Below are positions 42,724 to 58,520 of a DNA stretch of 64,000 nt, one piece after another. Every line of letters starts with the position of its first letter. The first letter of the stretch is position 1. The stretch lies in sequence record PQ471516.1; one strand, 5' to 3'. The notes below the pieces were generated by a model. It saw nothing but the letters and a program-made list of their open reading frames with translations, ran no database searches and was not told where the DNA came from. Position numbers and translations under genes: made by a program. The DNA is from Escherichia phage Turkey5.

Positions 42724-43929
42724 TTATATACCACGACTGGGTATTTGATATAATTGGAATTTAGTGTAGTAATCAGAAACTGTCGTCCCTGCTGCTTGTG
42801 GGATATAGCCACTCAAATACACATCCCCTTGATTATCCATATACACTGTTGTACATTCACTTGAACAGAATAACTCGGTGTTAGATACTTTAGGAGCATC
42901 AACTGGTGTTACAAATGTAGTACTTGATGTTGTATTACCGCGACCGAGCTTACCATACGTGTTTATACCACACATATAAAGTGAATCGGCAGTTTTAACC
43001 GTAAGCCCACCATATGTTAATGAATTTGATTTCATTTCCATATCATCTGATATTGGTAGAGTGGAGATAGTGGATAATACTGTCCAAGAATTAGCGGATG
43101 AACCATTACCCAAGTTACCATCGGACTGAATCCCACTTGCACGAACTGTATATGTATTATTCGTGTTGTGTTTATATACAACCCATGATGCACTCCCACC
43201 GAGTTCATAATGTATAACAGTATTGTTGGCGAATGCACCCATTTGTGTCCATACTCTAATGTTAGTTGCATCATTACTTATACCAAGAGAACCCCATGTG
43301 TTTTGACCAGTGACCCAAAGTGTTTTATCAATTTTTTGCACAATCACTGCACTTGAACCTGTTTTAACACTATCCACATTCGTATTAATTGACGTAAAAG
43401 TTGATAATCTTGTGGTTGTGTTATTACCAAAATATCCCTGTGTATTCGCCCCCATTCCATATAGCGTACCATTTTCAAGTAAAACAAAAATACCCTCACC
43501 TACAAGTTGAATGTCCTTAATTTGGGACAATTGTGTAGCATTGAATACTGATGTAAAATATGAAGTACAATCAGTATAAGTACTGGCAGTACTTAAACCT
43601 GCACCAATAGCTTTACCAACCCCACTATAATAAAATTTATTATCTTCAGTTTGGATTAAATTAAAAGTACCTTGGGCTGTTCTGAAACGTTTTACATTTT
43701 GGTATATTAAAGTCCATTCTTTTACTTTCGCATTATGTACACCATTTCCGAATCCATAGTTTTGTGAAGTAGTTCCACCTATACCCATTAAGTCTCCATT
43801 TTTATATAATAGTAAGAGTGCTGTCGCTGGAATTACTGACGCACTATAACCATTGTACATAAAGATTTCTTTCACTTCAGGAACTTTCATTTTATTAGCG
43901 TACTTAACCATTCTTGTAAAAGGTAACAT
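42724..43929 (-). CDS. RCC1-like beta-propeller protein with conserved MLPF leader (array member 1)
   Basis: N-terminus MLPFTRMVKYAN; RCC1-type motifs GINTYGKLGRGN, GANTQGYFGNN. Confidence 0.75.
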   Translation of the reverse strand: MLPFTRMVKYANKMKVPEVKEIFMYNGYSASVIPATALLLLYKNGDLMGIGGTTSQNYGFGNGVHNAKVKEWTLIYQNVKRFRTAQGTFNLIQTEDNKFYYSGVGKAIGAGLSTASTYTDCTSYFTSVFNATQLSQIKDIQLVGEGIFVLLENGTLYGMGANTQGYFGNNTTTRLSTFTSINTNVDSVKTGSSAVIVQKIDKTLWVTGQNTWGSLGISNDATNIRVWTQMGAFANNTVIHYELGGSASWVVYKHNTNNTYTVRASGIQSDGNLGNGSSANSWTVLSTISTLPISDDMEMKSNSLTYGGLTVKTADSLYMCGINTYGKLGRGNTTSSTTFVTPVDAPKVSNTELFCSSECTTVYMDNQGDVYLSGYIPQAAGTTVSDYYTKFQLYQIPSRGI

Positions 43930-44001
43930 AAAATCCTCCTTTATTCATTATACTATATTTAGCCAAAAAGGAAAAGCCAGTACTTGAGTACTGGCATTAT
44001 A

Positions 44002-45345
44002 TTATTGTAAAGGTATTTCAGTTAAGGTGCTATATTGTGTTCCGTTATATATACCCCTCCAGTATAATTTACCTTCAGTACTAATAACTAATAAACCATA
44101 TGTTGTAAACCCTAGAGTTCCTCCGACATACATAGCATCTTTTATTCTAATACCAATGTCTTCATATGTAAACTCTGATACTTCACCAGCATTCCACGCT
44201 GGACTGTAATAATAATCAGTATAAACACCATGTGCTTTATATAGGGACGTCAATCCAGGTTCAAAAATTACAGTTCCGCAGTAGTTCATTCTTATTTTAG
44301 TACTGGATGAAGTTGGTATATTACCAAAAATATTATCTTTTAACCCAGTAGTTAGAACGTTGAAACCACCACCAATGGAGTTAACGTTATTCACGCCACT
44401 TAGACTCATACCAACGTTGTATCCCATGCAATACACACTACTGCTACCATTCCAGTAAGAAAAACCGCCGCCACGACCACAACGATATAATTGTGAATTT
44501 GAACAGTACATCATACCTTCGTTTGATGCGTCATAGTCGTCTGCTGTTCCAATTGTAGCTACAGTAGTCCAAGTTTTAATTACTTGGTTTGCACTAGCTG
44601 GTGTTTGTATGCCATATCTGATATTATATCCCTTACCGACTATGGTCCCATCTAATAATTTGGCATACAGTACTGGTCTAGCCCCATTATAATAAACGTT
44701 ATTATGTGACATATCAATTGTACTTCGTAATGAAACTGCTTTTTGTGTCAATTGGTTATCTTTAGTAAAAGATGAAAAGTAGTAATCTGCTGTGGAGTTG
44801 TTTATTAAACCCTGAAAGGACTGACCCATATACCAGACTTCTCCGTTTGAGTTCAATGCTGCCAAAATACAACTATATTTGGATGTGTACCCAGTATTAG
44901 TGCCTGGACCTTTATCATACCCACCACTGAATACCATATCAACGACATCACCAACGCTAGTGAAATATGACGAAACATCGATGAATCCAGATGTTAAAAA
45001 TGGTGCAGTCGTCATCCCTGTATTTGTGAATATTCCATTTGCATATACACCACAAAAATTATACGAACCATCAATATCCTGTACTATGATACCATTAGAA
45101 AGTAACCAAAAGTTTTTTACATTTTTACGAACCAATTCAACACCTGCACCATTATTAGGAGTTATTCCAAATGTAATTGCTTTAGTTGTGCCCATGCCAT
45201 ATAAATTCCCATTGGTTGCTAATATTGCACCAAGCCAGTTTCCACCTCCATTACTATTACGACCCATACCAATGGAATCGAATTTCTTTACAGTTGGAGC
45301 TTCTACTGTATTCCCATAATCAAATAATCTAACAAAAGGTAACAT
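44002..45345 (-). CDS. Gly/Asn-rich beta-rich protein with conserved MLPF leader (array member 2, divergent body)
   Basis: N-terminus MLPFVRLFDYGN; 447 aa; no clear RCC1 motif seen. Confidence 0.65.
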   Translation of the reverse strand: MLPFVRLFDYGNTVEAPTVKKFDSIGMGRNSNGGGNWLGAILATNGNLYGMGTTKAITFGITPNNGAGVELVRKNVKNFWLLSNGIIVQDIDGSYNFCGVYANGIFTNTGMTTAPFLTSGFIDVSSYFTSVGDVVDMVFSGGYDKGPGTNTGYTSKYSCILAALNSNGEVWYMGQSFQGLINNSTADYYFSSFTKDNQLTQKAVSLRSTIDMSHNNVYYNGARPVLYAKLLDGTIVGKGYNIRYGIQTPASANQVIKTWTTVATIGTADDYDASNEGMMYCSNSQLYRCGRGGGFSYWNGSSSVYCMGYNVGMSLSGVNNVNSIGGGFNVLTTGLKDNIFGNIPTSSSTKIRMNYCGTVIFEPGLTSLYKAHGVYTDYYYSPAWNAGEVSEFTYEDIGIRIKDAMYVGGTLGFTTYGLLVISTEGKLYWRGIYNGTQYSTLTEIPLQ

Positions 45346-45355
45346 ATATTCCTCC

Positions 45356-57217: not shown

Positions 57218-58420
57218 CTATTGTTGCCATAACTGCGTTGGCATTAATGTTAGTGTAGTAATACTATAAGTGCCATCAGGCAATCTACCACCATTACCAT
57301 TCCAGCCACCACATGCATATAATTTATAATCTTTAGTAATTATTATGGTTCTGCTCCAATCTTTAGATGCCATAAGAACATTGTCATAACCACCACTTAT
57401 TGCACTAAGATTAAAAATATTCCAGGTTCTAACTAATGTATTAGTTCCATTACCTTCTTGACCATATGAGTTAGCACCACTACTTCTAACATATGATGGG
57501 TATTGTGCCATAGGTGAACCAATTGATGAAGTTCCCATATTACTTGGACAAATAAAATTACTGTACTTACTTACATCAACCGTGACCGATGTGTTCCTAA
57601 TTGGTGTTAGCTGATTTACAGATGTAGTCGTACCATTACCAGCTTCTCCTGTATTGTTAACCCCGCTATAATATACAGGCCCACCAGTAGTAAACCACCA
57701 AGTAACATTGTATGTAGCACTAATATGTTCTACATCACTAATCACATATTTGTTCAAATATATCATAGAACTACCACCACAACCACTTTCACCGAAGTTA
57801 TCCTTACCACAAAACCATGCCTGTTTATTTGATTTAATATAGTGCGTTCCTTGTAATGAACATGCCATATCAATAACTTCACCCATATTAGTCATAACTG
57901 TTAGTGTAGGTATGGAATTTTGATTACCAGACCCACATTCACCATTAGTATTTTTTCCACACGCAATTACTCTATTATCGGTTAATAATATTCTAGTACT
58001 TTCACCTATATATACACTCTTGATCATATTAGCCATGACGCCAATTTTATTAAATGAAGAAGTAACATCAGTCCATGTTCTCAAATAACCACCAACAGGT
58101 GTTGCATCTCCATAATCAGAAAATGCAGCCACCGACCCAGTGTAGTATATTTTATTATCCAAATCAATCATCAATGAACCATGAACACCAAGCCAATAGG
58201 CTGCACAGTTCCTTGCAAGTACTGTAAATGACGAAACTGCTGCTGAATTCCCAAGACCCAATTGAGACAAGTTATTACTACCATAACCATATAAAGTATT
58301 AGTTGGGCTATGTAGATACATACAGTTTGTATAATGTTGTTGTAAAACATTTGAGAACTCTATTGGTTCTGGCCCTGGTGCAATATTCGCGTACTTAACC
58401 ATTCTAGCAAAAGGTAACAT
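57218..58420 (-). CDS. RCC1-like beta-propeller protein with MLPF leader (array member 13)
   Basis: MLPFARMVKYAN; motifs GSNNLSQLGLGN, GKNTNGECGSGN, GANSYGQEGNG. Confidence 0.8.
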   Translation of the reverse strand: MLPFARMVKYANIAPGPEPIEFSNVLQQHYTNCMYLHSPTNTLYGYGSNNLSQLGLGNSAAVSSFTVLARNCAAYWLGVHGSLMIDLDNKIYYTGSVAAFSDYGDATPVGGYLRTWTDVTSSFNKIGVMANMIKSVYIGESTRILLTDNRVIACGKNTNGECGSGNQNSIPTLTVMTNMGEVIDMACSLQGTHYIKSNKQAWFCGKDNFGESGCGGSSMIYLNKYVISDVEHISATYNVTWWFTTGGPVYYSGVNNTGEAGNGTTTSVNQLTPIRNTSVTVDVSKYSNFICPSNMGTSSIGSPMAQYPSYVRSSGANSYGQEGNGTNTLVRTWNIFNLSAISGGYDNVLMASKDWSRTIIITKDYKLYACGGWNGNGGRLPDGTYSITTLTLMPTQLWQQ

Positions 58421-58468
58421 ATATTCCTCCTTTATTTGTTATATCATATTTACCCAAAATAAAAACCC

Positions 58469-58497
58469 TTGACACGCTTCTTGGACTAATGTAGAAT
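58469..58497 (+). promoter_or_regulatory. sigma70-type promoter (TTGACA-17-TAGAAT) for the small-protein array
   Basis: TTGACA 58469-58474, TAGAAT 58492-58497. Confidence 0.5.
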
Positions 58498-58520
58498 AGA
58501 AAGAAATTAAGGAGAAATGT

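Follow-up and report, generated by a model that had tools for sequence, protein, structure and literature searches.

A repeated ~110-bp cassette of hairpin, putative late promoter and leader codons in a shuffled gene array of the jumbo coliphage Turkey5

Introduction

What keeps the 5' ends of neighbouring phage genes nearly identical when the bodies behind them have diverged widely? The question is raised by an array of 13 minus-strand genes (G1-G13) in Escherichia phage Turkey5, contained in a stretch of 64,000 nt (PQ471516.1) that was analysed as a whole and is referred to here as the window. By megablast, the phage belongs to the genus Asteriusvirus, with PBECO4, 121Q, slurp01, G17, phAPEC6 and JNE01 as relatives, all Rak2-like jumbo coliphages of ~350 kb. 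The 17-kb array region is matched by 36 records at 84-97% identity, in pieces, and no single database phage covers more than 36% of it, the array being highly mosaic.

The array genes were found by searching for ATGTTACCTTTT, which opens all 13 of them and encodes a protein start of the form MLPFxRxxxYGN, in detail MLPF(V/A/T)R(L/M)..Y(G/A)N; G3, G5 and G10 were over-extended in the mechanical list of open reading frames (ORFs), and their true starts are those given in Table 1. Most array proteins match RCC1-like domains (PF25390, PF00415, PF13540), and GenBank names them 'regulator of chromosome condensation' or 'DNA condensation protein'. An original prediction, made from the nucleotide sequence, had drawn attention to a similar block in front of many of these genes. 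The present study characterises the repeated unit, which spans ~110 bp and comprises a hairpin, a putative promoter, a Shine-Dalgarno (SD) sequence and the first 12 codons, and which is probably a composite regulatory and recombination cassette serving two roles.

Results

Cassette anatomy and conservation

In coding-strand order, a spacer of 4-8 nt separates the stop codon of the preceding gene from GCCAGTAC and GTACTGGC, which enclose a 3-4-nt loop; these are followed by TTTTCTTTTTGA, TTAAATA, TAG, TATAAT, GAAT, the SD sequence AAAGGAGG, a further 4-6 nt, ATG and 12 conserved codons. In searches of the window, the 27-mer TAAATATAGTATAATGAATAAAGGAGG occurs in seven copies without mismatch (0 expected), all on the minus strand and inside the array, and the hairpin GCCAGTACT(CA/TG)AGTACTGGC, with up to three mismatches, occurs in front of G3, G6, G7, G10, G11 and G13 (0 expected). 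The cassette is present in nine of the 13 genes, as seven canonical and two variant copies (G8 and G1), in agreement with the predicted 'at least eight' genes with a near-identical upstream block; G2, G4, G9 and G12 have an SD sequence only, directly after the preceding gene. The 27-nt part of the block is identical in seven copies, and the loop of the hairpin is flipped (TTGA for TCAA) in two.

The contrast between these 5' regions and the gene bodies, on which the original prediction depended, is pronounced. Codon-aligned pairwise nucleotide identity among the 13 genes is 0.87 over the first 30 nt and 0.51 over the next 30, and falls to 0.28-0.47 in the bodies (0.50 in one sparsely covered alignment window), while cassette identity is ~83-100% and the array proteins are 14-36% identical in pairs. 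M1, L2, P3, F4, R6, Y10 and N12 form the only invariant stretch among the 13 proteins.

The block appears confined to the array. Elsewhere in the window, its 14-nt core AAATATAGTATAAT has only chance-level matches with 2-3 mismatches (42 vs 37 expected), and a reading of the full block as a phage-wide promoter was rejected, the block being array-specific and the TAAATA core alone general. A scan of IMG/VR for hairpin plus promoter matched a single contig and revealed no wider distribution, and a scan of the whole window with Rfam gathering thresholds gave no match in the array, the only matches being tRNAs and a group I intron. Features of ~104 bp annotated as 'repeat_region' cover the block in the GenBank record of UE-S1; the literature on these phages does not discuss it, and a literature search found no description of the cassette or of its AGTACT motif.

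The hairpin as a putative terminator

As RNA, the array hairpins fold with energies between -12 and -15 kcal/mol (z between -2.5 and -5.8), and each has a U-run after it. With its 8-bp stem, 3-4-nt loop and U-run placed upstream of promoter, SD and ATG, the unit has the layout of the promoter-early stem-loop (PeSL) elements of T4-type phages, and a G+C-rich hairpin with a U-tract on the transcribed strand is that of an intrinsic terminator; in the GenBank record of G17, orthologous hairpins are annotated as ARNold terminators. An alignment of 59 arms from seven Asteriusvirus arrays, Salmonella phage Munch and Klebsiella phage fENko-Kae01 revealed compensatory changes in the four outer stem pairs (GCC/GGC, GGTC/GACC, GGCT/AGCC, TGAC/GTCA), with 92.8% of cells paired and a covariation score reached in 1 of 500 shuffles. 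Two of the four inner AGTA/TACT pairs never change, and the other two change only to G-U, in single rows. The hairpin that closes the array, AAAGCCAGTACaaaGTACTGGCTTT, reads as a putative bidirectional terminator (Table 1). Each array gene had been predicted to be an autonomous unit, with the terminator of the upstream gene fused to its own promoter and SD: hairpin, U-run and covariation support the fusion of a putative terminator, and the autonomy does not extend to four of the 13 genes, which lie in co-transcribed pairs. A hairpin of the G8 kind (type 2), ACCCAGTACtgaaatattGTACTGGGT, followed by a T-run, is also found at 41455-41477 on the plus strand, between two plus-strand genes just outside the array, which is therefore not the only place with this AGTAC-stem terminator design.

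The loops occur in reverse-complement pairs without intermediates, namely TCAA (8) and TTGA (6), AGA (3) and TCT (5), and AAA (2) and TTT (1). Within the window, the hairpins at 43976, 46581 and 47803 are paired in this way with those at 51463 and 52714, and that at 42700 with that at 53955, the remaining cases coming from other arrays. The pattern suggests recurrent flip inversion of the loop across a perfect inverted repeat.

No hexamer of the window is more over-represented than AGTACT itself (~9-fold, 210 sites vs ~23 expected), and CAGTACTG has 37 sites in the window against 1.1 expected. A 6-16-fold excess of AGTACT is found in the loci of other Asteriusvirus phages, Munch and fENko-Kae01, the structural region included. 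The sites are spread over the three reading frames (44/46/34) and over intergenic DNA, and are therefore indicative of a DNA-level signal; together with the loop pairs, this excess hints that the palindrome is more than a terminator stem.

Promoter class

The cassette has no TTGACA-like -35 element, as had been correctly noted: the best candidate, TTTTCT (3/6), lies 16 nt from TATAAT and is the terminator T-run, a consensus scan calls none of these sites, and the sigma70-like early promoter of PeSLs, with -35 and -10 at ~17 nt, is not found. Textbook TTGACA-N17-TATAAT promoters precede the small plus-strand genes that flank the array, and the G1 promoter region overlaps a divergent sigma70-type promoter (TTGACA-17-TAGAAT, 58469-58497, plus strand).

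The promoter class, left as unclear in the original prediction, can be proposed from TAAATA, which lies 3 nt upstream of TATAAT and matches the late motif of Rak2-like phages. TAAATA (invariant) and TATAA(T) are the two near-invariant hexamers in 56 aligned cassettes, and both are kept in the G1 and G8 variants and in the cassettes of Munch and fENko-Kae01 (TTAAATATA[G/A/T]TATAAT), in which all sequence between TATAAT and SD differs from Asteriusvirus. In both genera, the element has the form (A/G/C)TTAAATA or GTAAATA, that of a T4-type late element. The late promoter reported for the Rak2-like phages CBB and GAP32 has a TAAATA core, which precedes structural genes there and has been likened to T4 TATAAATA (PMC5259590). 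Examples of the late 'promoter 3' of CBB are CTAAATATGATATA and CTAAATATAATATA (Table S7, PMC5259590), whose TAAATAT..TATA core recurs in the G1 promoter and in the cassettes of Munch.

The use of TAAATA was further assessed in phAPEC6, in the 70 nt upstream of 23 genes from a 49-kb segment with baseplate, tail and other structural genes. TAAATA was found 10 times against 0.44 expected, mostly 30-37 nt from ATG; the region upstream of gp244 (GTGCTTTTCTTTTTGAATAAATAT) resembles the cassette, and gp237c of the same segment is annotated as 'sigma factor for late transcription'. The window has 3.6-fold fewer copies of TAAATA than expected (33 vs 119), and nine of the 33 occurrences are cassette sites. 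Copies outside the cassettes include 355-360, 1466-1471, 2768-2773, 27404-27409 and 28142-28147; some survive in front of the tRNA genes at 385 and 1496, at a distance of ~25 nt, and others before a few plus-strand genes (TATAAATA before 27443). Depletion and surviving positions would fit use as a late promoter core. With TAAATA placed before structural genes and avoided elsewhere, and a gp55-like sigma factor annotated, a T4-type late promoter seems the most economical reading of the cassette promoter. This class needs no -35 element, and the missing -35 would therefore be explained; a sigma70-type or dual start may be contributed by the conserved TATAAT.

The suggested comparison with T4 consensus promoters thus favoured the late type over the middle type. 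A MotA-box (T4 middle) reading was rejected by sequence inspection, as TGATTAA resembles TGCTTtA but lies 6 nt from TATAAT and a MotA box requires a spacing of roughly 12 nt to the -10 element. An extended -10 was also rejected, the bases before TATAAT being TAG or TGA and not TGn, and the 'TGAAACG...TATAAT' class of CBB is absent from the cassette sequence.

Module shuffling and concerted evolution

Seven arrays were compared (window, UE-S1, G17, JNE01, EC.P1, PBECO4 and 121Q), with orthogroups obtained by clustering gene bodies without their first 45 nt at >=80% nucleotide identity. Orthogroup order differs in all seven. It reads E A. H L. F M B C N I J in the window (a point marks a gene with no ortholog in the set), E A F B C I G J in JNE01, E A H D B C G J in PBECO4, D O F A C K B G. 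in UE-S1, D P A H B K. C. N. in 121Q and D. O F M A. B G I.. in EC.P1. The upstream neighbour differs in 34 of 41 cross-phage ortholog pairs with a cassette. Of 60 ends of megablast high-scoring segment pairs (HSPs) that link the window array to the other arrays, 55 fall within -110..+60 of an ATG, a zone that makes up 13.9% of the array (binomial P ~2e-41), and all 13 junctions are used. HSPs start at ~-80 to -68 (hairpin) or, at hairpin-less junctions, at ~-16 (SD), and run on into the next gene as far as +35 to +46, so that the conserved block forms a seamless joint between modules. Exchange at a hairpin-less junction is exemplified by M-B in the window and M-A in EC.P1, with HSPs starting at -16, and the 5' coding block alone can therefore serve as crossover site. 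As in PeSLs, multiple copies (9 in 16 kb) lie at the boundaries of insertions, deletions and replacements between close relatives.

The bodies joined to the block are not all homologous, contrary to the assumption that all array genes are paralogs. G3 is a Kelch-repeat protein (PF24681, E 1e-35, over the curated cutoff) and not RCC1-like, with the same cassette and leader, and a Gly-rich protein (phrog_4474) with cassette and leader occupies array slots as group K in 121Q (gene 243), G17 (G17_00077) and UE-S1 (UE-S1_207) and as Munch_544 and ENKO_525c. Since the same cassette and leader stand on RCC1-like, Kelch and Gly-rich bodies, the 5' module has been joined to non-homologous bodies.

Cross-genus comparison also separates the history of the block from that of the bodies. 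Munch_9572 shares 50% identity with group F over 377 aa and 29% with its own paralogs, and Munch_2726 shares 35% with group C over 362 aa; on this protein similarity, paralog lineages F and C appear to predate the Asteriusvirus/Munch-type split. The 5' 36 nt, however, are 0.66-0.68 identical between cross-genus orthologs and 0.84-0.87 between within-genus paralogs. Position 4 is fixed as T in 70/70 Asteriusvirus genes and as A in 14/14 Munch-type genes, and the synonymous position 9 as CCT (70/70) and CCA/CCG (14/14), respectively. As the 5' 36 nt follow genus and not gene, the block has been homogenised among paralogs, i.e., has undergone concerted evolution; inside the genus, the copies look like a well-mixed pool. 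The suggestion of gene conversion or cassette shuffling is thus supported by the shuffled order, the breakpoints on the cassette, the unrelated folds and the genus-specific fixed differences.

Leader peptide and virion association

The leader, M[LI]PFxR[ILM]xxYGN, is kept across genera with different codons (MIPFxRILxYGN in Munch and fENko-Kae01), so that a short conserved N-terminal peptide stands on otherwise unrelated bodies, as at the T4 internal-protein (IP) locus. G6 as modelled with AlphaFold2 from the 13-sequence alignment (mean predicted local distance difference test score, pLDDT, 68; predicted template-modelling score, pTM, 0.76) is a beta-propeller with residues 1-19 outside it and modelled with low confidence.

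The virion presence of array proteins emerges from the literature and from GenBank notes mapped onto the array genes. Mass spectrometry (MS) of phAPEC6 virions detected gp003, 005, 006, 007, 009, 010, 549 and 551 (PMC7247149 Table 1). The phAPEC6 genes gp001-010 are array genes with the cassette, and gp003, gp005 and gp007 are orthologs of G5, G10 and the truncated G11; the truncated G11-type protein gp007 is thus among the virion-detected proteins. GAP32 gp1 was found by MS (PMC5259590), and ENKO_525c by liquid chromatography-tandem MS (GenBank note). Late expression fits these virion protein data. Because the leader is shared on unrelated bodies, because the proteins are virion-associated and because truncated gp007 is incorporated, we infer that the leader is a docking or targeting signal.

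Coordinates and other features of the window

G11 is truncated to 264 aa, and a 97-aa ORF after it (45675-45382) resembles a detached 3' part (46535-45382 together, minus strand); the same split state is found in 121Q (genes 238/237) and phAPEC6 (gp007/gp008). Repeats, mis-called starts and split genes make assemblies and annotations of the array region error-prone. In the fENko-Kae01 locus (6297-6629), the first array gene starts ~330 bp from the boundary of an annotated ~20-kb direct terminal repeat, which places the array right beside that repeat and the cluster of early small genes.

Table 1. Features of the array and its cassettes in the window (block, the 27-mer TAAATATAGTATAATGAATAAAGGAGG).
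Feature	Position	Strand	Notes
Array of 13 genes	42724..58420	-	ATGTTACCTTTT start
G1 promoter region	58421..58460	-	cassette-homologous from T-run on (GGGTTTTTATTTTGGGTAAATATGATATAAC); TAAATA 58447-58452; without hairpin
G1	58420-57218	-	
G2	57208-56099	-	SD only
Canonical cassette, G3	56028..56092	-	hairpin 56073-56092, T-run, TAAATA-TAG-TATAAT, SD; block 56032-56058
G3	56027-55131	-	Kelch
G4	55118-53979	-	SD only
Canonical cassette, G5	53910..53972	-	hairpin 53954-53972, 3-nt loop; block 53914-53940
G5	53909-52740	-	
Canonical cassette, G6	52669..52733	-	hairpin 52714-52733, flipped loop TTGA; block 52674-52700
G6	52668-51490	-	
Canonical cassette, G7	51418..51482	-	hairpin 51463-51482, flipped loop TTGA; block 51423-51449
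G7	51417-50236	-	
Variant (type 2) cassette, G8	50161..50231	-	hairpin ATACCAGTACtgaaatatGTGCTGGTAT 50204-50231, T7, TAAATA 50191-50196, TATAAT, weaker SD
G8	50160-49030	-	variant cassette
G9	49019-47829	-	SD only
Canonical cassette, G10	47759..47822	-	hairpin 47803-47822; block 47763-47789
G10	47758-46607	-	
Canonical cassette, G11	46536..46600	-	hairpin 46581-46600; block 46541-46567
G11	46535-45741	-	truncated
G12	45345-44002	-	SD only
Canonical cassette, G13	43930..43995	-	hairpin 43976-43995; block 43935-43961
G13	43929-42724	-	
Conserved 5' coding block, example (G13)	43894..43929	-	first 12 codons, MLPFxRxxxYGN; at 5' end of 13/13 genes
Closing hairpin AAAGCCAGTACaaaGTACTGGCTTT	42696..42720	.	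between convergent genes, T-rich tail on both strands, no promoter after

Outside the array, a second composite terminator-promoter, GGGTTGAC-ttcg-GTCA(G/A)CCC-TTTTTGC-TATAAT, recurs on the plus strand at ~24300, 26290, 28140, 29760 and 34430, between small genes and with its -35 TTGAC embedded in the terminator stem; from their sequence, these units look like classical PeSL-like early cassettes. Seven tRNA genes lie on the plus strand in 219-4442 (at 219, 385, 479, 1496, 2775, 4290 and 4370), and a group I intron (RF00028, 95 bits) at 1685-1998. The gene-poor region 62700-64000 lies where AGTACT density is highest in the window (34 sites in 60-64 kb); it has a strong TTGACA-N17-TATAAT promoter at ~63320-63350, with CAGTACTG in the spacer and no obvious ORF after it, and degenerate GGCTAGAT(G) repeats at 63768-63840. 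It could be a non-coding RNA, an origin, or sequence beside the terminal repeat.

Discussion

The ~110-bp repeat would, in the explanation that we favour, combine regulation with recombination. The hairpin would terminate transcription of the upstream gene, its T-run leading into a -35-less promoter (TAAATA directly followed by TATAAT), the strong SD sequence AAAGGAGG and ATG. The cassette would thereby isolate each array gene as its own transcription unit, making its expression independent of the genes around it. Such expression would most likely be late and depend on the phage gp55-like sigma factor, with the sigma70-type TATAAT as a possible additional start. With its copies all near-identical, the block would also offer portable homology to the phage recombination machinery: crossovers in it would delete, insert, replace and reorder whole bodies, within a phage and between co-infecting phages, and would keep the block homogenised. 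The N-terminal dodecapeptide would most likely be a shared virion-incorporation or docking leader for unrelated low-copy virion proteins.

Several observations weigh against this explanation. TAAATA in the cassette lies 25-26 nt from ATG, within a cassette range of 25-30 nt and slightly closer than in most structural genes (30-37), the perfectly conserved TATAAT is not part of the other late promoters in the phAPEC6 structural region, and a sigma70 or dual promoter at the cassette is possible; a literature search found no Asteriusvirus transcriptome. HSP ends reach the far edge of the universally conserved block, and the breakpoint statistic therefore locates junctions and not crossovers. Mean cassette identity within one genus is 0.832 within a phage and 0.829 between phages, so that homogenisation is visible at genus level and not in a single genome; within-genome homogenisation was rejected on this comparison, concerted evolution being visible between genera only. 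Much of the block consists, moreover, of functional elements that purifying selection alone would conserve.

This last point leads to the most conservative alternative, in which tandem duplication and purifying selection on each element would suffice, the cassette would have no role in recombination and its similarity would be retained ancestry. Recognisable functional elements do account for ~50 of the ~70 upstream nt, the peptide is kept at the protein level across genera with different codons, and cassette identity is ~0.83 whatever the phage or orthology. We nevertheless consider this improbable: terminators need no fixed stem sequence, yet GCCAGTAC/GTACTGGC is nearly invariant in the genus; position 9 is T in 70/70 and A/G in 14/14 cases despite lineages F and C being older than the genus split, an incongruence of 5' block and body already indicated by the 36-nt comparison; and the same module stands on non-homologous Kelch and Gly-rich bodies in a shuffled gene order, with seamless junctions at the block. 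Recombination could instead be driven by the palindrome, AGTAC...GTACT being a site for a site-specific recombinase or structure-specific nuclease, similar to integron attC, in place of general homologous recombination. Such a site would account for an inner stem AGTAC/GTACT that is invariant across genera while the outer pairs covary, for the 6-16-fold genome-wide excess of AGTACT in all reading frames and for the loop pairs without intermediates, read as traces of a recombinationally active palindrome, and the same was speculated for PeSL stems by Arbiol et al. (PMC2839356). It is, however, unlikely, as hairpin-less genes also swap partners (M-B in the window, M-A in EC.P1) and the 5' coding sequence suffices, no integrase-like gene lies beside the array in the annotated loci of six phages, and AGTACT is spread over the whole genome and not the array alone.

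An entirely regulatory account would treat the hairpin mainly as an operator, with a dimeric activator on the palindrome (centre ~-44) replacing the -35 of a sigma70 -10-only promoter in a class II-like arrangement. The perfect TATAAT without -35, the end of the palindrome at ~-35 relative to a start 7 nt after TATAAT and the presence of CAGTACTG between -35 and -10 of several early promoters outside the array would agree with it. Its chances appear very slim, given that the hairpin-TATAAT distance is 22 nt in Asteriusvirus and 18 nt in Munch/fENko-Kae01, which a face-of-helix-dependent site would not tolerate, that the array ends in a copy of this hairpin (42696-42720) which no promoter follows, and that loop length varies from 3 to 8 nt while the outer stem covaries as expected for RNA/DNA structure. 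Scarcely credible is an autonomous mobile element, such as a miniature inverted-repeat transposable element (MITE) or a homing-type element, repeatedly inserted before genes: many near-identical copies and an inverted repeat are what it would leave, but orientation and register to the upstream stop and downstream ATG are the same in every copy, the block runs on into coding sequence without target-site duplications, neither the rest of the 64-kb window nor the 49-kb structural region of phAPEC6 contains a copy, and the IMG/VR scan gave a single contig only.

The composite cassette, with its regulatory and recombination roles, also invites a bolder extension, which we offer tentatively and as more doubtful than the cassette itself. 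Any body placed behind the ~110-bp module might gain late expression and MLPFxRxxxYGN virion docking, in a plug-and-play loading system in which the AGTACT palindrome is the site of a putative phage DNA-binding or recombination factor driving both exchanges and loop flips. If this were true, a phage population could rapidly exchange its repertoire of host-interacting beta-propeller and Gly-rich proteins. The cassette accounts for the 'RCC1 / DNA condensation protein' array being the most variable part of otherwise ~90-95% identical Asteriusvirus genomes, and together with the 12-residue leader it provides a testable handle on the function and particle entry of low-copy virion proteins, as well as a natural landing pad for engineering cargo proteins into therapeutic jumbo phage.

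The array shares with integrons a tandem arrangement of single-gene modules separated by imperfect palindromes, with content that differs between close relatives. Integron cassettes, however, are promoterless and moved by an integrase acting on folded attC, whereas array modules have their own promoter and SD and are also exchanged at hairpin-less junctions, and no integrase is annotated beside the arrays in six annotated phage loci.

The IPs of phage T4 share a short conserved N-terminal capsid-targeting sequence that is removed by the prohead protease; to our knowledge, MLPFxRxxxYGN has no similarity to it. Insofar as the IP locus is described by Repoila et al. (1994), as cited in PMC4122927 and PMC2839356, it encodes hypervariable, virion-packaged, non-essential proteins whose genes are shuffled between relatives, and to that extent the array resembles it as a set of hypervariable virion-protein genes shuffled between related phages. 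The array bodies are, in contrast, beta-propellers of 250-450 aa or Gly-rich proteins, whereas T4 IPs are small and basic. With the late promoter of CBB and GAP32, the cassette shares the (A/C/T/G)TAAATA core, the A/T-rich sequence after it, the lack of a -35 and the position before virion-protein genes (PMC5259590); it differs in that a perfectly conserved TATAAT follows and that the motif is closer to ATG than in most phAPEC6 structural genes.

The closest parallel is with the PeSLs of T4-type phages, which combine a terminator stem-loop, an early promoter and SD/ATG, occur in hyperplastic regions at the boundaries of insertions and deletions, have been shown to recombine into mini-circles and have a middle-promoter version, PmSL (PMC2839356, PMC4122927). 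Like PeSL and PmSL, the cassette is a small composite motif with a terminator-like stem-loop just upstream of a promoter, followed by SD and start codon. Its copies, like theirs, stand between non-essential genes of hyperplastic regions, at the points where close relatives differ by insertion, deletion or replacement, and both kinds of cassette are proposed to act by homologous recombination while the modules stay transcriptionally insulated. Unlike them, it has a -35-less promoter with TAAATA in place of sigma70-like early (PeSL) or Mot-box middle (PmSL) promoters, continues for 36-45 nt into the coding region, where it encodes a shared leader, and punctuates one tandem array of virion-associated proteins, whereas PeSLs separate assorted ORFans; its hosts are Rak2-like jumbo phages (Asteriusvirus) and not Tevenvirinae, and its recombination is read from comparative footprints, whereas the deletions and mini-circles of PeSLs were seen by inverse PCR. 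The concept of a regulatory cassette doubling as a recombination linker is thus extended from T4-type to Rak2-like jumbo phages, from early/middle to late-type promoters, and from a purely non-coding linker to one with an N-terminal leader: the cassette would be a late-promoter version of PeSL in another phage lineage, its unit extended into coding sequence.

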